A DNA stretch of 50,028 bases from the NCBI GenBank assembly GCA_946615875.1, contig CAMOIK010000001.1, positions 1 through 50,028 of the forward strand, given 5' to 3'. The notes below the pieces were generated by a model that worked only from the letters and a program-made list of their open reading frames with translations, made no database searches and was not told where the DNA came from. Every line of letters starts with the position of its first letter. Position 1 is the first letter of the stretch. The position numbers were made by a program, and so were the translations under genes. Positions 5,941 to 44,105 of this stretch are shown here, piece by piece. This DNA is from an uncultured Verrucomicrobiota bacterium. GTDB taxonomy: Bacteria > Verrucomicrobiota > Kiritimatiellia > RFP12 > UBA1067.

Positions 5941-5962
5941 AAAAATATGGTATAATATGCGG
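5941..5962 (+). promoter_or_regulatory. extended -10 promoter box AAAAATATGGTATAATATGCGG (TATAAT at 5951-5956), hisD
   Basis: It contains TGGTATAAT (TGn plus the consensus -10) and belongs to the box family repeated across the window. The hisD ATG is at 5964, 7 nt after the hexamer. Confidence 0.7.
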
Positions 5963-5963
5963 C

Positions 5964-7238
5964 ATGATACGGATAGTCAGGAAAGGCGACAAGGCGATAG
6001 AGCGGTTCAATGCGCGACCGGCGTTCCCGGCCGAGGCGGAGGAGGCGGCGGCAAAGGTGCTGGCCGACATACGCAAGCGCGGCGACCGCGCCGTGGCCGA
6101 CGCCGTGGCGAAATTCGAGGGGGCGAAGCTGAGGCCGTGCGATTTCCTCGTCAAGGGGCCGTGCGACCCGTCGCAGATCGACCCGCGCATCGTAAAGGCC
6201 GTCAAGGAGGCGCACGGTCGGGTGCGCAGATTCAGCGTGGCGTCGCTGCGCAAACCTTGGGAAATCACCTCGCCAAACGGCGGGAAGTCCGGCGAATTCT
6301 TCTCGCCGATGGATCGCGTCGGCGTTTACATCCCCGGCGGCACGGCGCCGCTGGCCTCCACGTCGATACACACGGTCACGCTCGCGCGCGCCGCAGGCGT
6401 CCGCGAAATCGTCGCCTGCACTCCGGCGGGCAGGACGGGCGAGATCAATCCCGTCCTCCAGTATGCCTTGGAACTGGCCGGCGCGACGGAGATATACCGC
6501 GTCGGCGGCATCCAGGCGATCGGCATGATGGCCTACGGCACGCGCACCTGCCGGAAAGTCCAGAAGATCGCAGGCCCCGGCAACGCCTTCGTGACGGCGG
6601 CCAAGCGCCAGGTCTATGGCTACGTGGCGATAGACCAGGTGGCCGGACCAAGCGAAATCGCGGTTTTGACCGACGGCTCGGTGGACGAGCGCTGGATCGC
6701 CGCAGACTTGCTGAGCCAGGCCGAGCACGGCAGCGGCCTCGAGAAATCGCTGTGCGTCTGCACCTCCATGGAGTTTGCCGAGAAGGTGCGGGCGGAGACG
6801 CTGCGCCAGACGAAGTCGCTTTCGCGCAGGGCGCTCGTCGAGCGCGTGATCAAGCGCGGCGGCATCCTCATCGTCGTCGCGGACAGCGTCAAGGACGGAA
6901 TGGACGTCGTCAACGACTTCGCGCCGGAGCACTTCGAGATCATGACGCGCGACGCGCTCCGCGCAATGAAGGGCGTGCGCGCCGCCGGAGCGGTCTTCGC
7001 AGGGCCGTGGACGCCCGAATCCGCCGGCGATTTCGTGGCCGGGCCCAGCCACGTGCTGCCCACGGGCGGCGCGGCCAGGATGTTCAACGGCCTCACCCCG
7101 GACGACTTCCGCCGCCGCCACAGCTACGTGTCCTTCACGTGCAAGGACCTTTCCGACACGCTGGCCGCGATCGAGTCGTTCGCCGGCGTGGAGGGCCTGG
7201 ACGCGCACGGAAGGGCGGCGGCCGTCAGATTTTCGTGA
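5964..7238 (+). CDS. hisD: histidinol dehydrogenase
   Basis: The full length looks like HisD (GVYIPGGTAPLASTSIH, SQAEHG, GDFVAGPSHVLPTGG). The start MIRIVRKG at 5964 fits HisD N-termini. Residues upstream in track ORF 5892.. are a translation of the promoter box. Confidence 0.9.
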   Translation: MIRIVRKGDKAIERFNARPAFPAEAEEAAAKVLADIRKRGDRAVADAVAKFEGAKLRPCDFLVKGPCDPSQIDPRIVKAVKEAHGRVRRFSVASLRKPWEITSPNGGKSGEFFSPMDRVGVYIPGGTAPLASTSIHTVTLARAAGVREIVACTPAGRTGEINPVLQYALELAGATEIYRVGGIQAIGMMAYGTRTCRKVQKIAGPGNAFVTAAKRQVYGYVAIDQVAGPSEIAVLTDGSVDERWIAADLLSQAEHGSGLEKSLCVCTSMEFAEKVRAETLRQTKSLSRRALVERVIKRGGILIVVADSVKDGMDVVNDFAPEHFEIMTRDALRAMKGVRAAGAVFAGPWTPESAGDFVAGPSHVLPTGGAARMFNGLTPDDFRRRHSYVSFTCKDLSDTLAAIESFAGVEGLDAHGRAAAVRFS

Positions 7239-7261
7239 GCGACCGAACGGACCGCCCGCCC

Positions 7262-8080
7262 ATGACATTCCTCCAGAGACACGCTTATGGAATCGGCGCA
7301 GGCTTCGCGGCCATGCTCTGGCCGTTCTTCCGCCGCCGCCGCCGCATATCCGTCGAAAACATCCTCAAGGGCGGCGTGGCCTCCTGCGAGGAGGAGGCGC
7401 GGCGCATCGCCAAGGCGGCGTGGTGCCATCTCGCGGGCCACATAGCCGAAGCGCTGTTCGTGCCGGGCGTCATCAACGAGGGCAACTGGCGCGAACACCT
7501 GGACTTCTCGGCCGCCGCGCCGGAAGCCGTCAGTTTGCTTCTCGACCGGCCGGACGTGCCGATACTGCTCGTCAGCTCGCACCACGGCGTCTGGGAGGCC
7601 GCCACGAACGTCCTCTCGTTCGCCCGCCCGATGATCGCCGTCGCCCGCGTCATGAACTCGCGGCTCGTCGCCGACTGGCTGAAGAAGCACCACTTCAGAG
7701 GGCGGATAACGGTCATAGACAAGAACCGCGGCTTCACGCCTGAAATCCTCCGCCAGTGGCGGCAGACGGGCGCGGCGATGACCCTGCTCATCGACCAGCA
7801 TACGCGCAAAGGAGCGAGGCTCAGGTTCTTCGGGCGCCCCGCGCTCACCTACACCAGCGCCACGCGGCTGGCCATGCGCTGCGACGTCCCGATCGTCGTG
7901 GGGTCGTTCGTGCGCATCGCGCCATACCGCTACAGGCTCGTGGGCGGCTCGCCACTGCGCTTTGGCAAGGACGCCGACCGCGACGCGGCCACCCAGCAGC
8001 TCAACGACCGCTTGGAGGACGCCATCCGCCAGTATCCCGAGCAATACCTCTGGAGCCACAGGCGCTGGCGCGAGAAATGA
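7262..8080 (+). CDS. lipid A biosynthesis (Kdo2-lipid IVA) acyltransferase family protein, LpxL/LpxM-like
   Basis: The active-site motif HHGVWE is of the H-x-G-N-W-E type. The size (272 aa), an N-terminal hydrophobic segment and the C-terminal YPEQYLWSHRRW are typical of the family. Confidence 0.75.
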   Translation: MTFLQRHAYGIGAGFAAMLWPFFRRRRRISVENILKGGVASCEEEARRIAKAAWCHLAGHIAEALFVPGVINEGNWREHLDFSAAAPEAVSLLLDRPDVPILLVSSHHGVWEAATNVLSFARPMIAVARVMNSRLVADWLKKHHFRGRITVIDKNRGFTPEILRQWRQTGAAMTLLIDQHTRKGARLRFFGRPALTYTSATRLAMRCDVPIVVGSFVRIAPYRYRLVGGSPLRFGKDADRDAATQQLNDRLEDAIRQYPEQYLWSHRRWREK

Positions 8081-8123
8081 AACTCTTCCCGCCGGTGGGC
8101 CGGCGGGGCGTTTGCGCAATGGC

Positions 8124-9191
8124 ATGAAAATAGCTGTAGGACTTTCCGGCGGGGTCGATTCCAGCGTGGCCGCGCTGCTTCTCAAGGAGCATGGCCACGA
8201 CGTGGTGGGCATCACCATGCGCCTGTGGCGCGAGGGACGCTACAAGGGGGGCGGCCGCGACGCGTGCTTCGGCGCCGGCGAGGCCGAGGACATTGCGGCG
8301 GCCGCGGAGCTGGCCGAACGCATCGGCATCCCTTACCGCGTTTTCGACTGCGCCGACGAATACGACAAGGCCATCGTTTCCTACTTCCGCCAGACGTATC
8401 TCGCGGGCAAGACCCCCAACCCGTGCGTGAGGTGCAACGCCATGATGAAGTTCGGCCTCCTGCCCGATCTCGCAAGGCGCAGCGGCCTCGACTTCGAGAG
8501 GTTCGCCACCGGCCACTACGCGCGCACCGCCGTCGCCGCCGACGGCCGCGTGATGCTAATGCGCGCCGCCGACGCCGCCAAGGACCAGAGCTACTTCCTC
8601 TACCGCCTTTCGCAGGCGCAGCTCGCCCGCCACGTCTTCCCGCTTGGCGGCATGACCAAGCGCGAAGTCCGCGAAATAGCCCGTCGGCACGGCCTGGCCG
8701 CCGCGGACCGCCCCGATTCGCAGGATTTCTATTCCGGCGATGTCGCGGAACTCATAGGCGCGGAAAGCCGCCCGGGCGACGTGGTGGACCTCTCCGGAAA
8801 GGTGTTGGCCAGGCACGACGGCTTCTGGCGCTTCACCATCGGCCAGCGAAAGGGGCTGGGCATCGGCGGGGGCGGCGAGCCGTACTACGTCATCGACATC
8901 AACGCCTGCGCCAACCGCGTCGTCGTCGGGCGCGCCGGGGATGCCGTCAAGACTTCGCTGAGGGTGGCGGACATGAACTGGGTCTCGATCCCTCCGGCCT
9001 CCGGCCCGCTGCCAGTCGCCGTCAAGGTGCGCTCCGCCGGCGAGCCGAAGGGACCGGCCGTCCTCGACGGCGACAGATGCGTGTTCCCGGACGGCATAGC
9101 AGGCATCGCGCCGGGCCAGAGCGCGGTCTTCTATTCGCCGGACGCGCAGACTCTGCTTTGCGGCGGCGTCATCGTCAGGGAAGGGGAATGA
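8124..9191 (+). CDS. mnmA: tRNA-specific 2-thiouridylase
   Basis: It has the PP-loop GLSGGVDSSVAA plus NPCVRCN, DQSYFL and FTIGQRKGLG. Confidence 0.9.
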   Translation: MKIAVGLSGGVDSSVAALLLKEHGHDVVGITMRLWREGRYKGGGRDACFGAGEAEDIAAAAELAERIGIPYRVFDCADEYDKAIVSYFRQTYLAGKTPNPCVRCNAMMKFGLLPDLARRSGLDFERFATGHYARTAVAADGRVMLMRAADAAKDQSYFLYRLSQAQLARHVFPLGGMTKREVREIARRHGLAAADRPDSQDFYSGDVAELIGAESRPGDVVDLSGKVLARHDGFWRFTIGQRKGLGIGGGGEPYYVIDINACANRVVVGRAGDAVKTSLRVADMNWVSIPPASGPLPVAVKVRSAGEPKGPAVLDGDRCVFPDGIAGIAPGQSAVFYSPDAQTLLCGGVIVREGE

Positions 9192-9199
9192 ATCGAAAC

Positions 9200-9229
9200 G
9201 GTCCGCGCCGGGGACGCCCCGCGCGGACC
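9200..9229. terminator. GC-rich hairpin between convergent genes (a possible bidirectional terminator)
   Basis: GGTCCGCGC (9200-9208) pairs perfectly with GCGCGGACC (9221-9229), and an inner GGGG/CCCC pairing is possible. It lies between the mnmA stop and the stop of the minus-strand hydrolase gene. There is no clear U-tract. Confidence 0.45.
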
Positions 9230-9257
9230 GCTTCGCCGTATTGCGCAGACCCCTCGG

Positions 9258-10460
9258 CTACTGGAGGCGGCCGGTGTATTCTTCCACGCCGGAGACGCCC
9301 GTGCCGTCGAAATACTCCTTCGCCCGGCGCTTGCGCAGTTCGTCCCACGGACGGGGATTGCCGTTGAGCTGCACCACCCACAGTTTCAGCTGCTTCTTGT
9401 GCCAGTTCACTTCGCAGTTCGAGCCCCATGCGCCGCCATGCCCGAACCAGGCGTCTTCGCTGTCCGTCTTCGGCGCGTTGAAACCGAGCGAGTAGCCGCC
9501 CATTTCCTTCGGGCGCGTGGAGACCGCCAGTATGCTCTTGACCGTCTCCTCCTTGAGGATGCGCGCGCCGTTGTCGCCCTTGCCGAGGTTCATCAGCATC
9601 CTGTAGAACTTCAGCTGGTCGCGCGCGGTCGTCCACAGTCCCGCCCCTGCCGAGGCGAACACGAAGCGGTCGTTGTATGGGCGCTGCATGCTGGGGTTGT
9701 CGGTCAGGAACTCCGCGGGCTTGCCCTCTCTGCATTTGTATAGCTCGATGTGGCCGGCGAGCTGCTCGTCGCTCGGCCAGAACGTGGTGGAGTCCATGCC
9801 CAGCGGATCGAGGACGCGCTTCTTGAGGAAGTCTTCCCAGCGCATTCCGGTCACGATCTCTACCACGGCAGCGCCGATGTCTATGCCAGTGTTGGAGTAT
9901 TTCGTGCTGGTGCCTGGCTCGAAGAGCAGGGGCTGCGCGGCCGCGGTCGCGGCGACGCTGCGCAGCGGCATCTTGCGCGACCATCCGCCCGCCAGGCGGA
10001 AGTTCGGCAGCTCGAAGGGGAAGCCCGCCGTGTGGTTCATGACCATGCGCACGGTGATTGGAGTCTTCGCCTTCACGAGCGTCCGGGTTCCGTTCGTCTC
10101 CCCGCCGAGCACCCACATCTCCTCGAACTCGGGCAGGTATTTGGATACGGGATCGTCGAGGGATATCTTACCCTCTTCGACAAGTATCGCCACCGTGACG
10201 CCGCAGAAGCCCTTGGTCTGCGAGCACTGCATGAACGCGGAGTCGAGCGTGATCGGCCGCTTGGCCGCCACGTCCGCCCATCCGACGCACGTCACTTCTT
10301 CGGAGACGCCGTCGCGCTGGAACACGCTGATCGCGCCGGGCAGCTCGCCGCTCGCGATGAACGGGGCCAGCATGTCCTCCGTTGGGTTCGCGGGGCCGGT
10401 CGCCGCCGCGAGCGCGAACGCCGCCGCGATGCCTGCCCTCAGGATGTTTCTCGTCTTCAT
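9258..10460 (-). CDS. secreted serine hydrolase, beta-lactamase (class C-related)/PBP family
   Basis: It has an SxxK motif (CSQTKGF), the signal peptide MKTRNILRAGIAAAFALAAA, and ATG at 10460 preceded by GGAAGGAAG. Confidence 0.8.
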   Translation of the reverse strand: MKTRNILRAGIAAAFALAAATGPANPTEDMLAPFIASGELPGAISVFQRDGVSEEVTCVGWADVAAKRPITLDSAFMQCSQTKGFCGVTVAILVEEGKISLDDPVSKYLPEFEEMWVLGGETNGTRTLVKAKTPITVRMVMNHTAGFPFELPNFRLAGGWSRKMPLRSVAATAAAQPLLFEPGTSTKYSNTGIDIGAAVVEIVTGMRWEDFLKKRVLDPLGMDSTTFWPSDEQLAGHIELYKCREGKPAEFLTDNPSMQRPYNDRFVFASAGAGLWTTARDQLKFYRMLMNLGKGDNGARILKEETVKSILAVSTRPKEMGGYSLGFNAPKTDSEDAWFGHGGAWGSNCEVNWHKKQLKLWVVQLNGNPRPWDELRKRRAKEYFDGTGVSGVEEYTGRLQ

Positions 10461-10533
10461 TGCCGTCTTCCTTCCTTTCTTGGGTGTGGATGTTTTCGTT
10501 TGGTTGTGCAATGCGGCGCGCATGGCGCGGACG

Positions 10534-10986
10534 TCACCCCAGCTCGATGCCAAGTTCCTTCAGCGGCCCGGTGACGAATGCGCGCGAACGAAAGCGCGGG
10601 TGCGGCAGGACAAGGCTGGGCGTGTCGATCCTCATGCCGCCGAAATCGATCAAGTCTAGGTCGATCGTGCGCGGCCCGTTGCGGACGCCGCGCACCCGCC
10701 CCAGGGCGTCTTCGATGCCGTGCATCAGCCGCGAGAATTCTTCCGCCGCGAGCGCCGTCTCCAGCACGGCGACCTGGTTGAGGAACTTCAGCGACGCGAA
10801 CTCCTCGGGCACGCCGACGCCTTCCGTCTCGATTACGGCGCTCTTCGCCGAGAGGCGCGTGCGCGGCAGCGCGGCCAGCGCCTCCAGCGCCCTCGAAAGG
10901 TAGAGGCGGCGGGGCTCGATGTTCGACCCTAGCGACACGATTGCGCGCGTCAGCCCTCTTTCGCTGCCTTGTATGCCTGCCTGCAT
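10534..10986 (-). CDS. folK: 2-amino-4-hydroxy-6-hydroxymethyldihydropteridine pyrophosphokinase
   Basis: The motifs are AIVSLGSNI, GPRTIDLDLI and LVLPHPR. ATG at 10986 is the first codon after the promoter box. Confidence 0.85.
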   Translation of the reverse strand: MQAGIQGSERGLTRAIVSLGSNIEPRRLYLSRALEALAALPRTRLSAKSAVIETEGVGVPEEFASLKFLNQVAVLETALAAEEFSRLMHGIEDALGRVRGVRNGPRTIDLDLIDFGGMRIDTPSLVLPHPRFRSRAFVTGPLKELGIELG

Positions 10987-10990
10987 ACTG

Positions 10991-11010
10991 CTATTATACC
11001 ATATTTTCCG
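10991..11010 (-). promoter_or_regulatory. extended -10 promoter box CGGAAAATATGGTATAATAG (TATAAT at 10998-10993), folK
   Basis: This is an exact TATGGTATAAT copy on the minus strand. The folK ATG at 10986 is 6 nt after the hexamer. Confidence 0.7.
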
Positions 11011-11037
11011 CGTGGCGGCGCGCACCGCGCACCGGAT

Positions 11038-11080
11038 GTGTTGAAATTGTTCAACGCACTTTCAACGCATTTTCAACGCA
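11038..11080. repeat. three direct TTCAACGCA repeats at 11-bp spacing, preceded by the inverted half-site GTGTTGAA
   Basis: The copies are at 11050-11058, 11061-11069 and 11072-11080, and the inverted GTGTTGAA is at 11038-11045. They lie between the divergent folK and yraN promoters, and the last copy overlaps the -35 position of the yraN promoter. Confidence 0.75.
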
Positions 11081-11092
11081 CGGCTTCCGTCC

Positions 11093-11108
11093 GATATGGG
11101 ATAATGTG
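11093..11108 (+). promoter_or_regulatory. variant promoter box GATATGGGATAATGTG (GATAAT at 11100-11105), yraN
   Basis: It has the same architecture as the main box (ATATGG-N-ATAAT) and lies 38 nt upstream of the yraN ATG. Confidence 0.45.
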
Positions 11109-11142
11109 CGGCGTCGGCAGAAGAAAAGAAAGGAAGGGAAGC

Positions 11143-11580
11143 ATGGATCGTGGAAGACTCGGCGGCGCGGGCGAAAGCGCCGCGCACGGAGAATGGGGCG
11201 AACGCGTGGCGGCGGAGCGCCTGCGCATGGAAGGGCTGGAGATAATCGAACGGAACTCCCGTCCGCTCGCTCGCGACAGGCGCCTGGAGATCGACATCGT
11301 CGCCTACGACCCTCGCACCGACACCATGGTGTTCGTAGAGGTGAAGCAGCATTCCGCGCACCTGCCGCTCGAAAGGCGCATTCGCGGCGTGGACGAGCGC
11401 AAGCGGCGCAATCTGCGCATCGCCTGCGCCGCGTGGCGCCGCGCAAACCGCTGGGAGGGGGATTGCCGTTTCGACGTGGTCGAGGTCTTCGGCACGCCGC
11501 GCTCGCGCCGCCCGGAGATAGACCATGTGCAGTGCGTGCGCCTGCATTCGCCGTCGCTCGACGCGGTGCGCTGGGTCTGA
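11143..11580 (+). CDS. yraN: YraN family (UPF0102) endonuclease-like protein
   Basis: GEWGERVAAERLRMEGLEIIERN, EIDIVA and VFVEVK are the typical YraN/restriction-endonuclease-like core. ATG at 11143 follows AGGAAGGGA. Confidence 0.8.
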   Translation: MDRGRLGGAGESAAHGEWGERVAAERLRMEGLEIIERNSRPLARDRRLEIDIVAYDPRTDTMVFVEVKQHSAHLPLERRIRGVDERKRRNLRIACAAWRRANRWEGDCRFDVVEVFGTPRSRRPEIDHVQCVRLHSPSLDAVRWV

Positions 11581-11626
11581 CCGCCGCTGACGGAAAAATG
11601 CACAAGGGCACTTGCGCACTGCGCAC

Positions 11627-11644
11627 GGAATATGGTATAATACG
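11627..11644 (+). promoter_or_regulatory. extended -10 promoter box GGAATATGGTATAATACG (TATAAT at 11636-11641), pheA operon leader
   Basis: This is an exact TATGGTATAAT copy, 200 nt upstream of pheA. Confidence 0.65.
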
Positions 11645-11665
11645 CGCCGCTGACGAGAACTAGAG

Positions 11666-11746
11666 ATGACAACGACGCTTGACAACCTGTTTTTCGGCCT
11701 CGGGCTTTTCGGGCTTGCGCTCTTTACGGTGCGCGGGGCGCGTTGA
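11666..11746 (+). CDS. candidate leader peptide MTTTLDNLFFGLGLFGLALFTVRGAR (26 aa)
   Basis: This ATG..TGA mini-ORF starts about 18 nt downstream of the predicted TSS. It has 6 Leu and 4 Phe among 26 codons and lies ahead of a Phe/Leu biosynthesis operon. Its SD is weak. It could equally be a chance ORF or a small membrane peptide. Confidence 0.35.
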   Translation: MTTTLDNLFFGLGLFGLALFTVRGAR

Positions 11747-11788
11747 TCCTCTTTCTGACTGAAGCAGTCTTCACTCAAAGCAGAAATC

Positions 11789-11824
11789 AAGCCCCCGCCC
11801 ATCAAAGGCGAGGGCTTTGAGTTG
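11789..11824 (+). terminator. candidate attenuator/terminator hairpin in the pheA leader
   Basis: AAGCCCCCGCC (11789-11799) pairs with GGCGAGGGCTT (11807-11817) with one mismatch across a 7-nt loop. It is followed by TGAGTTG, a poor U-tract. Confidence 0.3.
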
Positions 11825-11836
11825 CAAGGAAAAACA

Positions 11837-13018: not shown

Positions 13019-13057
13019 CGCGGACGCGCCGCGCAGGTGCGGCGCAAGGAGGAAAAC

Positions 13058-14578: not shown

Positions 14579-14604
14579 CGGACGCGAGATAGAGGGCAGA
14601 AACC

Positions 14605-15858: not shown

Positions 15859-15886
15859 CTGGTTGCGCCGCCCTGGCGCGTGGCGC

Positions 15887-17201: not shown

Positions 17202-17206
17202 AGCGG

Positions 17207-17228
17207 CACATATATTACCATATTGTGG
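17207..17228 (-). promoter_or_regulatory. variant promoter box CCACAATATGGTAATATATGTG (TAATAT at 17217-17212), antitoxin operon
   Basis: It has an ATATGGTA core with TG-G-TAATAT. The ATG at 17201 is 10 nt after the hexamer. Confidence 0.5.
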
Positions 17229-17353: not shown

Positions 17354-18424
17354 CTATTCGGGCGGCGTCCAGTTCTGCATGGCGGAGTGAAGTTCTTCGA
17401 CGCGAGAGAGGTATTTGGCGGCTTCGCCCTGCGCCACCGCGTCCTTCGATTCCTGGAGGCGCGCTACTCTGTCCATCGTGCTCTTGTAGAACGCGGCGGC
17501 CTTTTTCGCCTCAACGGGCTTCTTGACCGGCTTGGCTGCTTCGCGCTCGCAGGAGGCGACGATCTTGATCATCTTCTGGCGGTCCGGATACTTCTTCAGG
17601 CGGTTGTTGAGCGAGGCCAGCTTCCTGTCGGATTTCAAGTCCGGCCACATCTTCAGCAATTCCTCTATGTCCCACATGGCCTGTCCCGGCGAAGAGTTGG
17701 AGTCGGAGATAAGCTCGGTCAGCCGCATGTCGCGTTTCTGGACGATTGCCGCCGAGAGGTGGCGGGCCTCCTCCGCCACGGCGGGATCTTTGTCTGCGGA
17801 CATCTTGCGCAGCCAGTTCAGGCCGGGTTTCATGGAATGGCCTTGGCTGAAGTGGTTCGTCACGTCGCCGGCGAGTTTGTCCACCTTGGCGATGCCGAAG
17901 ATCGGATGTTCGCGAGGCAGTTTGCGCACTGCCGCGAACGCGGCGGACGACGCCTTGGAGAAGTCGGTGCCGCTGTGCAGGACCTTGCCGTTCGTGCCGA
18001 CGACGTAGAAGAAGGGGAGTGATTTCGCGGCCGGCTCGCCTTCGGCCAGGCCGGCGTCGTTGTAGATCGGGATGCTCTTCTCCAGCGGTATTTCAAGATC
18101 CTTCATGGTTTCGGCGAACTTCGCCGCGTTCATGCGGTGTCCGCGCAGCGAGGCGATCGCTTTCAGACGGTAGAATTTGCTGTTTCTCGCCGTGCTCATG
18201 GCCTTGACCACCTTGTCGAGCGGCAGTTTCTTTATGGAGTCCTCGTTGAACGCCGCCACGATGACGACGGTGTCGATCAAGTCTTCCGGCTCGATAATCG
18301 CGCCGTTCACGCGGTTCTTCTCGCCGAGGCCGCGCCAGATTTCCTTGCCGTCATGTCCTGCCGCGCTGCCGCACATGGCCGTGAACCCGGCAAGCGCCGC
18401 CAACATCCACTGTTTCGCTTTCAT
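17354..18424 (-). CDS. secreted hypothetical protein: N-terminal thioredoxin-fold-like region without CxxC, then a Lys-rich helical C-terminal half
   Basis: The signal peptide is MKAKQWMLAALAGFTAMCGSAAG. The ORF is 356 aa and is directly preceded by a promoter box. No family is assigned with confidence. Confidence 0.65.
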   Translation of the reverse strand: MKAKQWMLAALAGFTAMCGSAAGHDGKEIWRGLGEKNRVNGAIIEPEDLIDTVVIVAAFNEDSIKKLPLDKVVKAMSTARNSKFYRLKAIASLRGHRMNAAKFAETMKDLEIPLEKSIPIYNDAGLAEGEPAAKSLPFFYVVGTNGKVLHSGTDFSKASSAAFAAVRKLPREHPIFGIAKVDKLAGDVTNHFSQGHSMKPGLNWLRKMSADKDPAVAEEARHLSAAIVQKRDMRLTELISDSNSSPGQAMWDIEELLKMWPDLKSDRKLASLNNRLKKYPDRQKMIKIVASCEREAAKPVKKPVEAKKAAAFYKSTMDRVARLQESKDAVAQGEAAKYLSRVEELHSAMQNWTPPE

Positions 18425-18427
18425 GGC

Positions 18428-18450
18428 CGATAGTATAGCATATTTTCGCC
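18428..18450 (-). promoter_or_regulatory. variant promoter box GGCGAAAATATGCTATACTATCG (TATACT at 18437-18432)
   Basis: It has the same flanks as the main box, with TGC in place of TGG. The ATG at 18424 is 7 nt after the hexamer. Confidence 0.6.
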
Positions 18451-18540: not shown

Positions 18541-18699
18541 TCCATATATAGACTGCCTCTTCTCCATATATGGACTGCCCCCTGCTCTATATATAGACTA
18601 CCCTCTTCTCTATATATAGACTGCCGCCTTCTCCATATATAGACGGCCGCTTCTCCATATATGGACTGCCGCCCGCTCCATATATGGCGTCGCCGAGTC
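18541..18699 (+). repeat. iteron-like tandem array, 7 units of 22-23 bp, unit TC(C/T)ATATAT(A/G)GAC(T/G)GCC-N5-6
   Basis: Units start at 18541, 18563, 18586, 18609, 18632, 18654 and 18677; the last unit is degenerate. Units 3 and 4 contain the AT-only palindromic core TCTATATATAGA. The array lies in the divergent intergenic region between two promoter boxes. Confidence 0.9.
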
Positions 18700-18816: not shown

Positions 18817-18848
18817 TTGACCCGCTGCGCGGAATTATGGTATAATAG
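18817..18848 (+). promoter_or_regulatory. promoter: -35 TTGACC (18817-18822), 18-bp spacer, extended -10 TTATGGTATAATAG (TATAAT at 18841-18846)
   Basis: It is the only box in the window with a clear -35. It lies 27 nt upstream of the ATG at 18873, which has the SD AAAGGAAAG. Confidence 0.7.
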
Positions 18849-18872
18849 CGACACCTGAAAGGAAAGACAGAC

Positions 18873-26757: not shown

Positions 26758-26761
26758 GGAC

Positions 26762-26784
26762 GCATATTATAGCATATTTTCGGC
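26762..26784 (-). promoter_or_regulatory. promoter box GCCGAAAATATGCTATAATATGC (TATAAT at 26771-26766), guaA
   Basis: The box flanks are conserved, with TGC in place of TGG. The guaA ATG at 26757 is 8 nt after the hexamer. Confidence 0.65.
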
Positions 26785-29533: not shown

Positions 29534-29569
29534 TGTTGTCTTTTCTCCTTTGAGTTGAAAAAGTTGGCG

Positions 29570-29585
29570 CATATTTTACCCTTTA
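29570..29585 (-). promoter_or_regulatory. weak candidate -10 (GGGTAAAATATGCGCC; TAAAAT at 29578-29573) overlapping the pssA stop codon
   Basis: It shares the TAAAATATGCGC part of the box but lacks the TG. It lies about 40 nt upstream of the ATG at 29533. Confidence 0.3.
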
Positions 29586-30433
29586 TTGGCCTCGTCTGTC
29601 AAGCCCCTCTCGTATTTTGTGCGGCCTTTCAGGAACACGATGCCGGTGAGCGGGACGGTGAGGATGTATATGGCGCCAGCCACGCCCAGCGTGAGCCAGA
29701 AGTCCATGAACAGGCACGCGAGCAACAGGAGCAGCCCTGCCATCACGTATGGCAGGGCGCCGCGCCGTATGTGGACCGACTTGAGCGAGATCGTGGGCAG
29801 GCGCGAGGCCATGAGCATTCCCACGAAGAGAAGCATGGCCATGCCGAACGCCGGACGCTGAACGAAGGAGGAGAAGGCTGGCGCGCGCGACTTGAGGGTG
29901 AGCGCCAGTATGGCCGGAGTGAGCACCATCCAGCAGCCGCCTGGCGCAGGCACTCCCGTGAAGAAGTGCTTCCAGTATGGAAGGGTGGGCTGCTCAAGCA
30001 TTGTGTTGAAGCGCGCCAGCCGGAAGCAGTCGCAGAGAGCATAGAAGAGTGCGCAACCCAGCACCACGCGCACCACGTAGGGCGACACGCCGTCGTGCAG
30101 AGGCCCGCCGGTTAGCCAGTAGAACATGAACATCGCCGGGGCCACGCCGAAATTCACGAAGTCCGCGAGCGAATCCAGCTCCGCGCCAAGTTTGCTCGCG
30201 GCTTTGAGCAGCCTTGCCACCCGCCCGTCCATGCCGTCGCATATGCACGCTACGAGCAGCGCCACCAGGGCCTCCACGAACCGCCCCTCGCTTGAAAGCG
30301 AAATGGACGTGATGCCGGCGCACGCCGCAGTGCTGGTGATCAGGTTGGGCACGATAGCCCTTAGCGGTATCCTTTCCGCGCGCACTCCCTCGTGCCGACG
30401 GCGCCGCCGTCCTCTCAGCCTGAATTTTCCCAT
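29576..30433 (-). CDS. pssA: CDP-diacylglycerol--serine O-phosphatidyltransferase
   Basis: The CDP-alcohol phosphatidyltransferase motif is DGMDGRVARLLKAASKLGAELDSLAD. It is a multi-TM protein adjacent to psd. Confidence 0.85.
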   Translation of the reverse strand: MGKFRLRGRRRRRHEGVRAERIPLRAIVPNLITSTAACAGITSISLSSEGRFVEALVALLVACICDGMDGRVARLLKAASKLGAELDSLADFVNFGVAPAMFMFYWLTGGPLHDGVSPYVVRVVLGCALFYALCDCFRLARFNTMLEQPTLPYWKHFFTGVPAPGGCWMVLTPAILALTLKSRAPAFSSFVQRPAFGMAMLLFVGMLMASRLPTISLKSVHIRRGALPYVMAGLLLLLACLFMDFWLTLGVAGAIYILTVPLTGIVFLKGRTKYERGLTDEANKG

Positions 30434-30458
30434 GGCGAAAACAAAAGTATGCCGTTAG

Positions 30459-31181: not shown

Positions 31182-31183
31182 GC

Positions 31184-31702: not shown

Positions 31703-31735
31703 AACTCACCTCATTCCTTTTTGGATTGTGACGCG

Positions 31736-31753
31736 CATATTTTACCACATTTC
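31736..31753 (-). promoter_or_regulatory. variant promoter box GAAATGTGGTAAAATATGCGCG (TAAAAT at 31744-31739), infC
   Basis: It has TG-G-TAAAAT with the conserved ATGCGCG downstream flank, about 37 nt upstream of the proposed infC start. Confidence 0.5.
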
Positions 31754-31811
31754 GCGTCGTGAACGCAAGAGGAAAGTTGGTGTCCGCGCCGTTCGCGCCG
31801 CCTGTTCGTCG

Positions 31812-32522: not shown

Positions 32523-32988
32523 TGGCGGCGAAGTCTGCCTGGAGGCTGGCGCGGCGGCGCAGTTCTTCGTCGGTCAGCGGGGCGAGGCCTTTCGAGCGCA
32601 GATACCGCAGCGCCTTGCGGTAGGCCACGGAGGCGCCGTCCACGCCGCGCAGGGCGGCGGCGTTCTGTCGCGTCAGGAAGTCGTTGGCCCAGCTGCCGTC
32701 GGCGTTCTGCGAGCCGACGAGTTCGCGCGCGGCGTCCGCTCCGCCATACGCCAGAAGATACATGGCGGGGCGGCGCAGGCGCGCGGAGCCATCCTCGCCG
32801 CCGCTTTGCGCGCCGACGAAGACCGCCGCAACGCCGATGGCGAGCGCGGCGGCCGCGGCGGCGGCATACGCCGTCTTCCGCCAGGCGGCGGCGCTGGGCG
32901 GGCGGTCGCCGAGGCGGCGCATCCGCGCAACCATCTCGCGGTAGCCAGGCCCCAGCTCCCTCAACGTGTCTTCCAGGTCTGCATTCAT
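32491..32988 (-). CDS. putative anti-sigma factor (single-pass membrane protein)
   Basis: Its ATG overlaps the stop of the ECF sigma gene by 4 nt. It has one central hydrophobic helix (AYAAAAAAALAIGVAAVFVGA). The call rests on position and topology only. Confidence 0.5.
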   Translation of the reverse strand: MNADLEDTLRELGPGYREMVARMRRLGDRPPSAAAWRKTAYAAAAAAALAIGVAAVFVGAQSGGEDGSARLRRPAMYLLAYGGADAARELVGSQNADGSWANDFLTRQNAAALRGVDGASVAYRKALRYLRSKGLAPLTDEELRRRASLQADFAANARLAMAETL

Positions 32989-33464
32989 CGCTCCAGTTCC
33001 TCCTTCAGTTTCTTAAGGGCGTTGAACATGCGCGACTTCACCGTGCCGGCGGGGATGCCGAGTATTTCCGATATCTGCGCATACGGCAAATCCTGGAAGA
33101 CCCCCAGCTCCACCACTTCGCGGAGAGGTTCGCTCAGGCGCGAAACCGCCCAGAGGACATCGTCGCGCTCCATTCCCGTCGCGGACTGCGCCACGGGTCT
33201 TTCCGCCTGCCATGCCTTTTCGCGCCGTTCGCGCCGCGTCGTCCGGCGCAGCGCGTCGATGCGCACCTGGCGGGCGACCGTGAACACGAACGTGGAGAAT
33301 TTCGCCGTCGTCTCCCTGTACTGTCCGCGATAGTTCCAGAGCCTGAGGTACGTCTCCTGGAGAAGATCCTCGCCTTCACCAAGTGAAACGCCCTGGCGCC
33401 AGAAGAAGTTCAAAAGGTTTTTCTCGAGTTTCCTGGCTTCCGCCAGGATTTCGTCACCCGACAT
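32985..33464 (-). CDS. RNA polymerase ECF-type sigma factor
   Basis: The region 2 motif is EDLLQETYLRLW and the region 4 HTH is LPYAQISEILGIPAGTVKSRMFNALKKL. Confidence 0.85.
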   Translation of the reverse strand: MSGDEILAEARKLEKNLLNFFWRQGVSLGEGEDLLQETYLRLWNYRGQYRETTAKFSTFVFTVARQVRIDALRRTTRRERREKAWQAERPVAQSATGMERDDVLWAVSRLSEPLREVVELGVFQDLPYAQISEILGIPAGTVKSRMFNALKKLKEELER

Positions 33465-33861: not shown

Positions 33862-33897
33862 GTCTCGTCCGGCTTGCGGGTGGAAGGTGGCGCGCGG

Positions 33898-36391: not shown

Positions 36392-36422
36392 GTCTCAGTT
36401 GCTCCTTGGTTGTCGTTTCGCC

Positions 36423-36442
36423 GCATATTATACCATATTTAT
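36423..36442 (-). promoter_or_regulatory. extended -10 promoter box ATAAATATGGTATAATATGC (TATAAT at 36432-36427), PMM operon
   Basis: This is an exact TATGGTATAAT copy on the minus strand, divergent from the nusB promoter. Confidence 0.7.
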
Positions 36443-36531
36443 CCCGCTCCATGCCCGAAAGGTTTGAAAAGTTTCCCCGTTTCGCGTCCTGGGCGCGGCT
36501 GCGCACGGCCGAGAGGCCGGTCACACGGCGC

Positions 36532-36553
36532 GAAAAATATGGTATAATATGCG
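36532..36553 (+). promoter_or_regulatory. extended -10 promoter box GAAAAATATGGTATAATATGCG (TATAAT at 36543-36548), nusB-ribD-ribE
   Basis: This is an exact copy of the box, 38 nt upstream of the nusB ATG. Confidence 0.7.
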
Positions 36554-36585
36554 CGCGTTTCACGCAAGGAAGGTAGAAAGACGAG

Positions 36586-38643: not shown

Positions 38644-38674
38644 CTCCATCCATCCCTTCCCTTGGGGACGGAAA

Positions 38675-38827
38675 GTCCATATATAGAGAACGGCAAGTCC
38701 ATATATAGAGATGCCGCGAGTCTATATATGGAGAAGTGGCAAGTCTATATATCAAGTCTATATATAATATAGAGACGGGGCAAGTCTATATATAGAGACG
38801 CGCGAGTGAATATATAGGGATGCGCGG
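38675..38827 (-). repeat. second iteron-like tandem array, 7 units, the same family as 18541-18699 but in inverted orientation
   Basis: Units start at 38675, 38697, 38720, 38743 (truncated to 13 bp), 38756 (28 bp), 38784 and 38806 (degenerate). The unit is GTC(C/T)ATATAT(A/G)GAGA-N7-8. GGCAAGTCTATATATGGAGA matches the reverse complement of array-1 units (GGCAGTCTATATATGGAGA). Confidence 0.9.
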
Positions 38828-38902
38828 GCGGATGCAGGGGGCGGTCGGCGGGCGTTGCGCGGCAAGATCGCCCGGCTATCGCGTCATGCGCCCCCGAACG
38901 GC

Positions 38903-38924
38903 GGAAAATATGGTATAATATGCG
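38903..38924 (+). promoter_or_regulatory. extended -10 promoter box GGAAAATATGGTATAATATGCG (TATAAT at 38914-38919)
   Basis: This is an exact copy of the box, 27 nt upstream of the ATG at 38946. Confidence 0.7.
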
Positions 38925-38945
38925 GCGACCAAGGATCAAGGACAC

Positions 38946-40448: not shown

Positions 40449-40507
40449 GGCCGGCCGGCCCGGCGCCGCCGCAGGCGAGGGGCCGCTAACTGCGAGGCAC
40501 GAGAGAC

Positions 40508-40984
40508 ATGAACACAGCGGTATATCCCGGGACTTTCGACCCGATGACGAAGGGTCACTTCGACCTGATCGTCCGTTCGGCGCGGCTCTACGAGCGGCTG
40601 GTCGTCGCCGTCGCCGCCACCTCCTCCAAGGAGGGCGCCATGTTCCCGGCCGACGAGCGCATGGCCATGATACGAGAGGACGTGGAGCGCGCGGGGCTGG
40701 CGAACGTGGAAGTGAAGCTGCTCGACACGCTGCTTGTGGATTTCTGCCGCCGCGAAGGGGCGCGCGTGGTGATACGCGGCGTGAGGGTTTACAGCGACTT
40801 CGAATACGAGTTCCAGATGGCCCTGACCAACCGCCGCCTCGCCCCGGAAATCGAGACCCTCTTCATGATGCCTTCCGAAAATCTCGCCTACGTGACGGCC
40901 TCGACGGTCCGCGAGATCACGCGCTACGGCGGCGACACGGCGCCGTTCGTGACAGAGGCCGTCCAGCGGCGGCTGCGCGGCTGA
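40508..40984 (+). CDS. coaD: phosphopantetheine adenylyltransferase
   Basis: YPGTFDPMTKGHFDLI (a T/HxGH nucleotidyltransferase motif), RGVRVYSDFEYE and SSTVREI-type ASTVREI. Confidence 0.9.
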   Translation: MNTAVYPGTFDPMTKGHFDLIVRSARLYERLVVAVAATSSKEGAMFPADERMAMIREDVERAGLANVEVKLLDTLLVDFCRREGARVVIRGVRVYSDFEYEFQMALTNRRLAPEIETLFMMPSENLAYVTASTVREITRYGGDTAPFVTEAVQRRLRG

Positions 40985-43056
40985 TGGGGATGTTCCGCCT
41001 AGAGTCGTCATTCAAGCCGACCGGCGACCAGCCGAAGGCGGTGGCCGACCTTTGCGCGGCGCTTGAACGCGGGGAGCGGCGCGCGGTGCTGCAGGGCGTG
41101 ACGGGGAGCGGCAAGACCTTCACCATGGCCAACCTGATAGCCAAGTGGGACCGCCCGACGCTGATACTCTCGCACAACAAGACCCTGGCCGCGCAGCTCT
41201 TCAGCGAACTGCGCGGTTTCTTCCCGCAGAACGCCGTCGAATACTTCATCTCCTACTACGACTACTACCAGCCGGAGGCGTACATCCCGCAGACCGACAC
41301 CTACATCGAGAAGGACGCCTCCATCAACGACGAGATAGAGCGCTACCGGCTGGCCGCGACGAACGCGCTCATAGCCCGCCGCGACGTGATCGTGGTTTCG
41401 TCGGTGTCGTGCATCTACGGTCTTGGCGAATCCACCGAATACCGCGACCTGGCCGTGAGCCTGCGGGTGGGCGAGCGCGCCGGGCGCAGCGCGGTGGCGG
41501 AGCGGCTCGTGGCCGCGCAGTACGTGCGCAACGACTTCGACTTCGCGCCCGGCACGTTCCGCGCGCGCGGCGACACGCTCGACATCTTCCCGGCATACGA
41601 GACGCGAGCGGTGCGCGTGGAGTTCTTCGGCGACGACATCGACGCCATCTCCTATCTCGACCCCGTGACCGGCAAAAAGGGCGTGGCGATGCCGGCCGTC
41701 ACGATCACGCCGGCCAAGCAGTTCGTGCTGGGACGCGACAAGTTCGAGGCCGCCTTCGCGAGGATACGCGCCGAGCTGGCCGAGCGCCTCGCCTTCTTCG
41801 AGTCCAAGGGCAAGCTCCTGGAGGCCCAGCGCCTGCGCGAACGCACGGAATACGACATCGAAATGATGCGCGAGCTCGGCTACTGCAACGGCATCGAGAA
41901 CTATTCCCGACCCCTCACGGGCCGCGCTCCTGGTTCGCCGCCCGAATGTCTGCTGGACTACTTCCCCGACGACTTCCTGACCATCATCGACGAAAGCCAC
42001 GTCGCAGTGCCGCAGATACGGGCAATGTACAACGGCGACCAGGCGCGCAAGCAGATGCTCGTGGATTTCGGCTTCCGCCTGCCCAGCGCGAAGGACAACC
42101 GGCCTCTCACCTTCGACGAGTTCAATTCCAAGGTCGGCCAGATCGTCTATTGCTCGGCGACGCCCGGCGACTACGAGTATTCCGAGGCGCAGACCGTGGC
42201 GGAGCAGGTGCTGCGCCCGACGGGCCTGCTCGACCCAGTCATAGAAATCCGCCCGCTCGCAAACCAGATCGACGATCTGATAGAGGAGATACGCGGCGTC
42301 AAAGGGCGCGTGCTCGTCACCACGCTCACGAAGCGCAGCTCCGAAGACCTGACCCACTACCTCGCCGAGACGGGCATACGCGTGGAATACCTCCACTCCG
42401 GCATCGACGCGATAGAGCGGGTCGCGATCCTGCAACGCCTGCGCAAGGGCGACTTCGACGTGCTGGTGGGCATCAACCTCCTGCGCGAGGGACTGGACCT
42501 GCCGGAGGTGGAGCTGGTCGCGATACTCGACGCGGACAAGGAAGGCTTCCTGCGCTCCGATACGTCGCTCGTGCAGACGGCGGGGCGCGCCGCCCGCCAC
42601 GAGAACGGCCGCGTGATACTCTACGCCGACAAGAAAACCGACGCCATCAAGACCCTGCTGCGCCTCACGGAGGCGCACCGCGAGAAGCAGATGGCCTGGA
42701 ACAAGGAGCACGGCATAACGCCGCACTCGGTGAAGCGCGAGATCAACGAGTCCACCTACATCTACAGAGCCGACGGCAGGTCGGCGAAGGGCAGGGGGGC
42801 GCCGGCGGCGCCGCAGGGCGCGGTCGACGCGCTCCGCCCGGGCGGCGACGTCGACATCCTGGCCGAGATGACCAGGGAAATGCTGGAGGCGGCGGACAAT
42901 CTGGAGTTCGAGCGCGCCGCCTATCTGCGCGACCGCATCAAGGAACTGAAGAAGGCTTCTCCGGCCGCGGCGGCCGCCGCCGAAGCCGCCGCCGCCGGGG
43001 CCGGCGCGCCGCGCGGGAAGAGGCCGCGTTCCACCGCGAAGAGGAAAAGGAAATGA
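40984..43056 (+). CDS. uvrB: excinuclease ABC subunit B
   Basis: It has F-x-P-x-GDQ, Walker A GVTGSGKTFT, the beta-hairpin region YYDYYQPEAY, and the C-terminal UVR motif FERAAYLRDRIKEL. Confidence 0.95.
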   Translation: MGMFRLESSFKPTGDQPKAVADLCAALERGERRAVLQGVTGSGKTFTMANLIAKWDRPTLILSHNKTLAAQLFSELRGFFPQNAVEYFISYYDYYQPEAYIPQTDTYIEKDASINDEIERYRLAATNALIARRDVIVVSSVSCIYGLGESTEYRDLAVSLRVGERAGRSAVAERLVAAQYVRNDFDFAPGTFRARGDTLDIFPAYETRAVRVEFFGDDIDAISYLDPVTGKKGVAMPAVTITPAKQFVLGRDKFEAAFARIRAELAERLAFFESKGKLLEAQRLRERTEYDIEMMRELGYCNGIENYSRPLTGRAPGSPPECLLDYFPDDFLTIIDESHVAVPQIRAMYNGDQARKQMLVDFGFRLPSAKDNRPLTFDEFNSKVGQIVYCSATPGDYEYSEAQTVAEQVLRPTGLLDPVIEIRPLANQIDDLIEEIRGVKGRVLVTTLTKRSSEDLTHYLAETGIRVEYLHSGIDAIERVAILQRLRKGDFDVLVGINLLREGLDLPEVELVAILDADKEGFLRSDTSLVQTAGRAARHENGRVILYADKKTDAIKTLLRLTEAHREKQMAWNKEHGITPHSVKREINESTYIYRADGRSAKGRGAPAAPQGAVDALRPGGDVDILAEMTREMLEAADNLEFERAAYLRDRIKELKKASPAAAAAAEAAAAGAGAPRGKRPRSTAKRKRK

Positions 43057-44069
43057 AACCGTCACTCGAAAAGTATCTCCGCGAAGGCGGCAGCCTGGGC
43101 TCGCTCGCCTCGCGGCCGCCAAAACGCGCCGCCACGGCGCCGTTCCCCTGCGACCCGGCGGACGTGTACGACCGCCAGGTCGCGGCGCTCGCGACGCGCC
43201 TCGGGCGCATCGGCGCGCGCACCGTGACGGTGGGCGTGTCCGGCGGGCTCGACTCCGCGCTGTGCCTGCTGGCGGCGGCGGGCGCCTTCGACCGCCTAGG
43301 GCTGCCGCGCACGGGCATCCACGCGATCACCATGCCGGGCTTCGGCACCACGGCGCGGACGAAAGGCAACGCCGAGCTTCTTTGCGAGGGGCTGGGGGTG
43401 GCGCTGGAGACGATAGACATCACCCCGGCGTGCCGGCAGCATTTCAAGGACATCGGCCACGACGGCTCCACGCCCGACGTGACGTTCGAGAACGCACAGG
43501 CGAGGATGCGGACTTTGATACTGATGGACAAGGCCAACATGACCGGCGGCGTGGTCCTGGGCACGGGCGACCTCTCGGAGATCGCGCTGGGGTGGTGCAC
43601 CTACAACGGCGACCACATGTCGATGTTCGGCGTGAACTCCGGCATCCCGAAGACGGTCGTGCGCAAGGTGTGCCTCCATCTGGCCGAGAACGGAAAGACG
43701 CTCTTCTCCGACGCTTCCGCCGCCGCCGCGCTGCGCGACATCGTGGCGACGCCGGTCTCGCCGGAGCTGGTGGCGGGGCAGGTCACGGAAGAAAAGCTCG
43801 GGCCCTACGAGCTCCACGACTTCTTCATCTGGAACTTCATCGAGAACGGCCTGGACCGCCAGGAGCTCTTCGACGCCGCGCGCGCCTTTTTCCCCGGCAG
43901 GTTCGACGACGCCCTCGTCGCCTCCACCCTCGAGACTTTCCTCGTCCGGCTGGTCTCGCAGGCGTTCAAGCGAAACTGCGCGCCGGACGGCATACGCATC
44001 TTCAACTTCGACTTCTCGCCGTCCTCCTGGCACATCCCGTCGGACATGCCGAAGGACGCGCTGTTGTGA
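43053..44069 (+). CDS. nadE: NAD+ synthetase, synthetase domain only (no N-terminal CN-hydrolase/glutaminase domain)
   Basis: ATG at 43053 overlaps the uvrB stop (ATGA). The PP-loop is GVSGGLDSA, followed by GTGDLSEIALGWCTYNGDHMSM. It is 338 aa. Confidence 0.85.
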   Translation: MKPSLEKYLREGGSLGSLASRPPKRAATAPFPCDPADVYDRQVAALATRLGRIGARTVTVGVSGGLDSALCLLAAAGAFDRLGLPRTGIHAITMPGFGTTARTKGNAELLCEGLGVALETIDITPACRQHFKDIGHDGSTPDVTFENAQARMRTLILMDKANMTGGVVLGTGDLSEIALGWCTYNGDHMSMFGVNSGIPKTVVRKVCLHLAENGKTLFSDASAAAALRDIVATPVSPELVAGQVTEEKLGPYELHDFFIWNFIENGLDRQELFDAARAFFPGRFDDALVASTLETFLVRLVSQAFKRNCAPDGIRIFNFDFSPSSWHIPSDMPKDALL

Positions 44070-44086
44070 CGCCCTGCGCGCCATCG

Positions 44087-44105
44087 GCAAATATGGTATA
44101 ATATC
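44087..44105 (+). promoter_or_regulatory. extended -10 promoter box GCAAATATGGTATAATATC (TATAAT at 44097-44102), purL
   Basis: This is an exact TATGGTATAAT copy. The SD AAGGAG is at 44115-44120 and the ATG is at 44130. Confidence 0.7.

Follow-up and report, generated by a model that had tools for sequence, protein, structure and literature searches.

A near-consensus extended -10 box as the probable housekeeping promoter of an uncultured Kiritimatiellia bacterium

We analyzed a 50,028-nucleotide (nt) stretch of DNA (hereafter the window; positions 1 to 50,028 of contig CAMOIK010000001.1, assembly GCA_946615875.1) from an uncultured bacterium of the Verrucomicrobiota (Kiritimatiellia; RFP12; UBA1067), in which a nearly invariant AT-rich box of about 20 nt stands before the transcription units. 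Taken together, the evidence makes it very probable that this box is a sigma-70 core promoter of the TRTG extended -10 type, read by the housekeeping holoenzyme (i.e., core RNA polymerase with a canonical group-1 RpoD), and no extra factor is required to read its flanks. Both this promoter type and the accompanying leaderless architecture of “group C” genomes (see below) are already known, and no new mechanism is revealed. What is unusual, in degree and in place, is near-consensus fidelity at about 80-90% of the transcription units of a high-GC lineage of the Planctomycetes-Verrucomicrobia-Chlamydiae (PVC) superphylum.

Of the features expected of a sigma-70 extended -10/TRTG promoter, those accessible to computation were found, namely a hexamer with its upstream TG, a location and orientation relative to genes that extends to RNA genes, compensation by the -35 element, and a cognate sigma factor. 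In the mechanism that we propose, RpoD holoenzyme would bind the TRTG extended -10 box as core promoter, and the -35 hexamer would be dispensable, since hardly any of the other elements (TG, TRTG, -10-proximal AT tract and hexamer) departs from consensus. A TTGACA element (17-18 nt spacer) would be used mainly where the box is imperfect. Transcription would start at the 8th base after the hexamer; at about 30% of the boxes the transcript would begin at, or within 1-3 nt of, the AUG and yield a leaderless mRNA, and elsewhere 18 nt or more would remain to accommodate a Shine-Dalgarno (SD) leader. Both the polymerase contacts and the translation of leaderless mRNAs are inferred here from sequence patterns.

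Sequence, copy number and information content of the box

The genome to which the window belongs (as contig C1) is a 172-contig metagenome-assembled genome of 1.74 Mb, 65% complete and with 64.7% GC. An iterated position weight matrix (PWM) identified 401 boxes in this genome (threshold of at least 12 bits, reverse-strand ghosts removed), with cggaAAATATGGTATAATATGCGcc as consensus, versus 7 boxes in an order-3 Markov copy of the genome. This simulation was used instead of a reversed-sequence PWM control, which is unsuitable as the reversed motif itself holds TATAAT. An expectation-maximization (EM) motif search of upstream regions, run de novo from random seeds, led to the same motif (cggaAAATATGGTATAATATGCGcc). 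Within the consensus, AAAA occupies -21 to -18, followed by T-17, A-16, T-15, G-14 and G-13, the TATAAT hexamer (-12 to -7) and a 7-nt discriminator (ATGCGCC). The hexamer is a perfect TATAAT in 323 of the 401 boxes (81%), the TG of the extended -10 is present in 378 (94%), and TnTG in 346. Counted over the whole genome, there are 361 copies of TATAAT, 317 of TGnTATAAT, 242 of TGGTATAAT and 198 of TATGGTATAAT.

At the scale of the window, the 11-mer TATGGTATAAT occurs exactly eight times, versus none in 100 dinucleotide-preserving shuffles, and seven sites match the 21-mer with at most three mismatches. A first-pass annotation of the window, made from the sequence alone, had listed these eight exact copies along with six close variants and considered such a recurrence far from chance. 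Both statements hold: the genome-trained PWM scores the 14 listed sites at 18-40 bits, and the only other window sites above 15 bits are reverse-strand ghosts of the same boxes.

Two further candidate patterns were set aside. The -10 variants TACCAT and TATCAT were mostly reverse-strand ghosts of true boxes and were removed (13 TATCAT remain in the final set), and an avoidance of TATAAT outside promoters was unsupported, with 38 copies outside boxes versus a median of 34 for the other hexamers made of three A and three T.

Each box carries ~25 bits of information on a uniform background, or 29 bits on the genome background, versus the 13.1 bits required to specify 401 sites in 1.74 Mb; the -35 zone overall holds only ~1.4 bits. 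The information is ~0 upstream of -22 and downstream of about +3, which indicates that the boxes are not part of a longer repeat. This bears directly on a reading in which the boxes would be a dispersed repeat (of the miniature inverted-repeat transposable element or repetitive extragenic palindromic kind) or a propagated “mobile promoter” cassette, their uniformity resulting from recent copying. Hundreds of near-identical 20-mers in one genome, together with a ~5-fold enrichment of boxes within 100-300 nt of contig ends, would be in line with such copying. However, the likeness stops at ~25 nt, there are no terminal inverted repeats, and both orientation and spacing relative to genes are strict. 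In addition, the positions of the box vary independently of each other (e.g., hexamer variants, or TG-less boxes with a -35), and orthologous promoters keep the box in place when their flanks are down to 70-80% identity or unalignable. We thus consider a repeat origin highly improbable.

Location and orientation relative to genes

Almost all boxes (391 of 401, 97.5%) are either intergenic or no more than 150 nt away from a 5' end on the same strand that was called too far upstream, and 374 point toward the next gene versus 10 that do not, three of these 10 being tRNA promoters. A genome-wide scan, as proposed in the first-pass annotation, therefore finds the motif neither equally often inside genes nor in random orientation. 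Among genes whose upstream neighbour is divergent, and which are thus obligatory starts of transcription units, 107 of 122 (88%) have a box. RNA genes are covered as well: of the 29 tRNA genes, 17 are preceded by a box at 12-38 nt from the mature 5' end, and a box stands 176 nt before the 16S rRNA gene. The presence of boxes before tRNA and 16S genes points to a transcription signal, not a translation signal.

The window follows the same rule, its gene calls defining 14 transcription units that each have exactly one upstream box pointing at that unit. This bears out the earlier view that every copy faces the adjacent downstream gene and that the copies account for essentially all operon starts. 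It had also been noted that all copies are intergenic except for one overlapping a stop codon, and this proved correct: the box at 29573-29578 shares its TAA with the upstream gene, and the boxes at 5951 and 10998 are inside an open reading frame (ORF) only when genes are equated with their longest ORF, the in-frame ATGs found 8 and 7 nt after these boxes being the real start codons.

The same coverage can be set against a reading in which the box would serve as operator for some global DNA-binding protein, be it a repressor or a nucleoid protein, or else as promoter for an alternative sigma factor. At least four small sigma factors resembling the extracytoplasmic function (ECF) type are encoded, one of them in the window at 32985-33464, and a uniformity this high is more typical of regulon operators. 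Yet a signal found at 88% of the obligatory unit starts and at tRNA and rRNA genes does not delineate a regulon, and the consensus is that of a textbook sigma-70 promoter with TG and TTGACA compensation (see below). ECF promoters are not known to resemble TGnTATAAT. An operator or alternative-sigma site is hence hardly credible as an explanation of the box.

Some loci gave negative results. No housekeeping box was found in the 107-nt gap upstream of groES-groEL, which follows dnaK (C117:5657-6090), and these genes may be co-transcribed with dnaK or may depend on an alternative sigma factor. A sigma factor of RpoH size was not found in this 65%-complete genome (which holds only RpoD and four ECF-like sigmas), and EF-Tu is not in the 65%-complete assembly.

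Boxes are also frequent at contig ends: 46 were counted within 100 nt of an end where 7.9 would be expected, and 107 within 300 nt where 23.7 would be. Of the 46, 37 point inward. Breaks in the assembly favour intergenic regions that carry promoters, perhaps through a coverage dip in AT-rich DNA, repeat arrays or strain variation.

Spacing to start codons and predicted leaderless genes

Measured from the last T of the hexamer, start codons show a bimodal spacing. A first class of 114 genes (114 of 374 boxes, 30%) has a spacing of 6-11 nt with a mode at 8; few genes are found at 12-25 nt, with none at 16-18 nt, and 163 genes at 26-100 nt. In the 6-11 nt class the start codon is ATG in 88% of cases and an SD-like motif was found in 2 of 114 genes; ~70% of the genes in the 26-100 nt class have an SD-like motif. 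When the spacing is 8 nt, the base just before the ATG is a C in 48 of 49 genes (98%), and when it is 9 nt the same position (d7) is a C in 91%. A conserved C followed by a purine corresponds to the canonical Y-1/R+1 start (i.e., a pyrimidine at -1 and a purine at +1), and on this ground we place the transcription start site (TSS) at the eighth base past the hexamer, which is usually a purine with a C before it. This position falls inside the 6-8 nt expected in the first-pass annotation. About 30% of the promoters are then predicted, from their spacing, to produce mRNAs that are leaderless or carry a 1-3-nt leader, including in the window those of hisD, folK, guaA and the gene at 18424. The spacing of the 6-11 nt class, its share of at least 25% of the operons, its preference for ATG and its lack of SD motifs agree with those by which GeneMarkS-2 defines group C genomes (a Pribnow box 6-10 nt before the start codon).

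For ~62 genes, choosing the start codon by ORF length or coding score sets it upstream of the gene's own box (in the window, 5892 instead of 5964, and 11025 instead of 10986). For these genes the boxes would give corrected, often leaderless, starts, and standard annotation of the lineage probably over-extends many N-termini.

The cognate sigma factor and the role of the -35 element

One group-1 sigma factor is encoded, an RpoD of 682 amino acids (contig C6) that aligns to solved SigA/RpoD chains at an E-value of about 1e-109. Its regions 2.3-2.4, 3.0 (IPVHMIETINK) and 4.2 (TRERIRQIEAKALRKLRHP) are intact and essentially identical to those of Escherichia coli and Bacillus subtilis. In such sigma factors, region 3.0 reads the TG and region 4.2 reads the -35.

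The first-pass annotation had seen a -35 hexamer only once in the window (TTGACC, 18817-18822). A second and perfect one (TTGACA, 29597-29602 on the reverse strand) is separated by 18 nt from the downstream box at 29578, which lacks the TG, and this compensation extends to the genome. TTGACA matched at five or more of its six positions, 16-19 nt from the box, is present at 35% of the imperfect versus 15% of the complete TGnTATAAT boxes (odds ratio 3.1, p = 9e-5), with about 1% in a shifted control. A-tract (-21 to -18), T-17/A-16, TGG and hexamer scores are each negatively correlated with -35 quality; the discriminator score shows no correlation with it. We read this pattern as the classical modular trade-off of sigma-70 promoters. 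As the A-tract and T-17/A-16 themselves trade off with the -35, the upstream flank can be argued to feed the same polymerase-binding energy. The additional factor that had been suggested to read the flanks is accordingly not needed, the upstream flank behaving toward the -35 as the TG and hexamer do. The other suggestion, that of a rigid promoter grammar independent of the -35, is supported with one qualification: location, orientation, coverage of unit starts, RNA genes and leaderless spacing all agree with a rigid grammar, but the -35 persists at 15% of the complete and 35% of the imperfect boxes.

Elements described elsewhere for bacterial promoters include the TRTG, a -10-proximal AT tract, a G-rich Ex region, initiation ~7 nt past the -10, and a pyrimidine-purine-pyrimidine (YRY) start element (PMC12641261). 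Compared with these, the TATG of the box corresponds to the TRTG -16 region and G-14/G-13 to the G-rich Ex region, and the mid-spacer is enriched in GC.

Distribution of the box in related genomes

In a tree of UvrB, the window groups with Lentisphaerota and Verrucomicrobiota (PVC superphylum; support of 98-99 in the Shimodaira-Hasegawa-like approximate likelihood ratio test, SH-aLRT), and genes for a 3-deoxy-D-manno-octulosonic acid (Kdo) transferase and a TolC-like protein indicate a diderm. The box is found genus-wide, as all of the 20 other genomes of the genus hold 62-435 perfect TWTGNTATAAT 11-mers. Scanned with the PWM of this genome, box density is 230 per Mb here, 275 in a congener (G013) and 211 in a genome of another genus of the same family (G098, family f1), versus 28 in a genome of the same order and another family (G023) and 3 in a genome of the same class (G036). 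Across 80 genomes of the class, TGNTATAAT was clearly above its reversed-pattern control only in families f1 and f11, and about twofold above in f9. In samples of G023 and G036, a de novo EM search did not recover any promoter-like motif. Within the genus, the base at -16 varies, with an A in 90% of the boxes here versus 28-72% in the 20 congeners; the 20-mer is near-invariant in this genome because the species is the extreme of its genus in A-16 preference.

Orthologous promoters were compared at glmM, where 14 of the 18 loci recovered from other species of the genus (the window's own locus excluded) have a T[AT]TGnTAnnnT box at 26-45 nt upstream of the ATG. The flanks of these loci have diverged to 70-80% identity, or their alignment is lost, and the box is kept at the same place. 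At one congener locus (L097, G008:C53), the glmM orthologue is preceded by a tRNA gene, with a box ~20 nt upstream of the tRNA, a spacing as short as at the tRNA promoters of the present genome.

A changed reading head was considered as the cause of this rigidity. The DNA-contact segments of RpoD and of the beta' zipper are identical in the rigid G013 and G098 and in the non-rigid G023 (rpoC is missing from the 65%-complete genome studied here), and on this ground a changed sigma or beta' zipper was rejected as the cause.

Weighing the housekeeping promoter against a second reader

Several points weigh against a housekeeping sigma-70 promoter as the full account of the box. The genes were called by a simple codon-usage model of our own (93% coding), which is crude and sets some 5' ends too far upstream, and the position of the TSS and the leaderless status are deduced from spacing. 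The information excess is about twofold, which leaves room for a second constraint, although PWM thresholding inflates this figure. The least explained feature of the box is the conserved A-6 T-5, which does not trade off with the -35. Finally, sister families devoid of the rigid box have identical sigma and beta'-zipper DNA-contact segments, so that the rigidity is not explained by the known readers.

These points lend themselves to another interpretation, namely a promoter in which a lineage-specific factor associated with RNA polymerase, or a non-canonical part of the polymerase, would in addition read the flanks (the A-tract at -21 to -18, A-16 and A-6 T-5) and co-evolve with the promoters. 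An excess of this size (25-29 bits versus 13.1 required), a rigid grammar confined to family f1 (211-275 boxes per Mb versus 28 in G023 and 3 in G036) despite contact segments that are the same in G023, a -16 preference that differs among congeners (A in 90% here versus 28-72% in the 20 others) and an A-6 T-5 that stays outside the trade-off would all be accommodated by such a reader. Against this, every conserved position is an element already known as read by RNA polymerase alone, the A-tract and T-17/A-16 trade off with -35 quality as expected for a shared binding energy, and no candidate factor was identified. The excess, besides being overestimated by thresholding, could also be due to selection favouring promoters that are uniformly strong and independent of activators. 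On balance we regard a second reader of the flanks as quite unlikely, and retain the housekeeping sigma-70 promoter.

A broader possibility concerns the evolutionary origin of the pattern. A rigid family-level grammar, an information excess, a shifting -16 base and unchanged sigma and beta' residues could together mean that an unrecognised lineage-specific reader has co-evolved with hundreds of promoters; alternatively, the lineage could have switched from activator-dependent promoters to one universal constitutive promoter. That one of the two happened is unlikely, but worth bearing in mind.

Promoters of the window

The 14 boxes of the window are listed in Table 1.

Table 1. Boxes of the window and the transcription units that they face. 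Hexamers are in square brackets; scores are from the genome-trained PWM; distances are counted from the end of the hexamer.
Element	Position	Strand	Hexamer	Score (bits)	Downstream unit	Start codon	Remarks
AAAAATATGG[TATAAT]ATGCGGC	5941-5963	+	5951	38.9	hisD (Histidinol_dh)	ATG 5964, 8 nt	predicted leaderless; 5964 in frame with longer ORF
GAAAATATGG[TATAAT]AGCAGTA	10986-11008	-	10998	29.3	folK (HPPK domain)	ATG 10986, 7 nt	predicted leaderless
TCCGATATGG[GATAAT]GTGCGGC	11090-11112	+	11100	18.2	UPF0102 gene (Pfam)	ATG 11143, 38 nt	weak box
CGGAATATGG[TATAAT]ACGCGCC	11626-11648	+	11636	34.0	26-codon ORF (11666-11746), then pheA-leuA-leuC operon (Pfam)
CACAATATGG[TAATAT]ATGTGCC	17205-17227	-	17217	23.2	83-amino-acid ORF and downstream genes	ATG 17201, 11 nt
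GAAAATATGC[TATACT]ATCGGCC	18425-18447	-	18437	28.6	356-amino-acid gene	ATG 18424, 8 nt	predicted leaderless
TTGACC, 18-nt spacer, GGAATTATGG[TATAAT]AGCGACA	18817-18853	+	18841	26.8	PglD/NeuD-like and WaaA envelope operon (Pfam)	ATG 18873	-35 at 18817-18822
GAAAATATGC[TATAAT]ATGCGTC	26759-26781	-	26771	37.0	guaA (GMP synthase domains)	ATG 26757, 9 nt	predicted leaderless or 1-nt leader
TTGACA, 18-nt spacer, CAATAAAGGG[TAAAAT]ATGCGCC	29566-29602	-	29578	24.2			TG-less, -35 compensation case; -35 at 29597-29602; TAA of hexamer is stop codon of upstream gene
CGAAATGTGG[TAAAAT]ATGCGCG	31732-31754	-	31744	28.5	infC (IF3 domains)
ATAAATATGG[TATAAT]ATGCGGC	36420-36442	-	36432	35.8	glmM-like phosphohexomutase (Pfam)	ATG 36391
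AAAAATATGG[TATAAT]ATGCGCG	36533-36555	+	36543	37.8	nusB (NusB)	ATG 36586	divergent from box 36432
GAAAATATGG[TATAAT]ATGCGGC	38904-38926	+	38914	40.1	TolC-like OEP ... uvrB operon (Pfam)	ATG 38946	full 21-mer consensus
GCAAATATGG[TATAAT]ATCCCCA	44087-44109	+	44097	33.9	purL (FGAR-AT domains)	ATG 44130

Some of these promoters have additional features in their vicinity. Just upstream of the box at 11100, across and upstream of its -35 zone, three direct repeats of TTCAACGCA are spaced by 10-11 bp (~11051-11082); in this connection the box, with its GATAAT, stands out as the only promoter of the window with a defective hexamer. The promoter of the UPF0102 gene looks like an activator-dependent one, of the response-regulator type.

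Between the box at 11636 and pheA-leuA-leuC, a leader of ~190 nt contains the 26-codon ORF (MTTTLDNLFFGLGLFGLALFTVRGAR), rich in Leu (6) and Phe (4) codons, followed at about 11790-11825 by a GC-rich stem and a short T run. This ORF may encode the leader peptide of an attenuator for a merged Phe/Leu operon, or else a small membrane peptide; an Rfam search of the window gave no matches, including in this leader region.

Tandem arrays of 3-7 units of 22-23 bp with a CCATATATAG / TCTATATATAGA core were detected at ~15 places in the genome, two of them in the window (18541-18699 and 38675-38827) and ~13 elsewhere (e.g., C23:46-199, C44:71-208 and C143:2863-2976), several at contig ends. A promoter box lies within 400 nt of 11 of the 15 arrays, typically about 100-200 nt away, with the array mostly upstream of the box. 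This arrangement suggests an upstream activator or enhancer-like array for a single regulon, to which envelope and efflux operons would belong in the window.

Comparison with known promoter systems

Several known systems share part of this architecture. The extended -10 (TGn) of E. coli and the TRTG “-16 region” of promoters from B. subtilis and other Gram-positives were reportedly described by Mitchell and colleagues in 2003 and by Voskuil and Chambliss in 1998. The box has the same T-17 R-16 T-15 G-14 n TATAAT organization, the same dispensability of the -35 in the presence of the TG and the same compensation between -35 and Ex, and the TG-reading residues of sigma region 3.0 are conserved here. 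The difference lies in fidelity and host: in E. coli and Gram-positives the element is found in a minority or about half of the promoters, with degenerate hexamers, whereas here TG reaches 94% and TATAAT 81% in a PVC diderm of 65% GC.

Sigma-70 promoters of Campylobacter jejuni and Helicobacter pylori have an extended -10 and no recognisable -35, and the present genome resembles them in its genome-wide reliance on the -10 and TG with a weak or absent -35. It differs in that C. jejuni and H. pylori are AT-rich, have periodic upstream AT tracts and few leaderless mRNAs, and reach a much lower fidelity per site; in the present genome TTGACA is kept as a back-up.

With regard to leaderless genes, group C genomes as defined by GeneMarkS-2 are those in which a Pribnow box lies 6-8 nt away from the start codon and 25-50% of the operons are leaderless (PMC6028130). 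As in this group, known from Actinobacteria and Deinococcus-Thermus, the box here stands 7-9 nt before the start in ~30% of the operons, with ATG preferred and no SD, and the rest of the operons have SD leaders. In contrast to the TANNNT of group C (PMC6028130, the main text of which does not name PVC), however, the box is here a full extended -10, and the lineage is another one.

The elements found here follow the order given in the recent model of bacterial core promoters of Kuo et al. 2025 (four-region spacer, discriminator and “start” element; PMC12641261): the mid-spacer is GC-enriched, an AT tract adjoins the -10, the Ex is rich in G, and a Y-R start follows at 7-8 nt from the hexamer. 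Their survey covers 49 species, with no Verrucomicrobiota or Kiritimatiellota, and describes the discriminator as variable in Gracilicutes (PMC12641261), unlike the conserved A-6 T-5 found here. A literature search for this motif, or for promoters of Kiritimatiellae or Akkermansia, returned nothing relevant.

Implications

Operon maps, transcription starts and true start codons of this lineage would be readable from sequence alone, an aid to annotating uncultured PVC bacteria of gut and rumen, and the box suggests a portable strong promoter for high-GC hosts. From an evolutionary perspective, promoters appear to have been hardened to near-consensus in one family, with no visible change in the parts of sigma and beta' that read them and with congeners that differ at -16, which would make this group a tractable case for the evolution of promoter “dialects” and of information excess.

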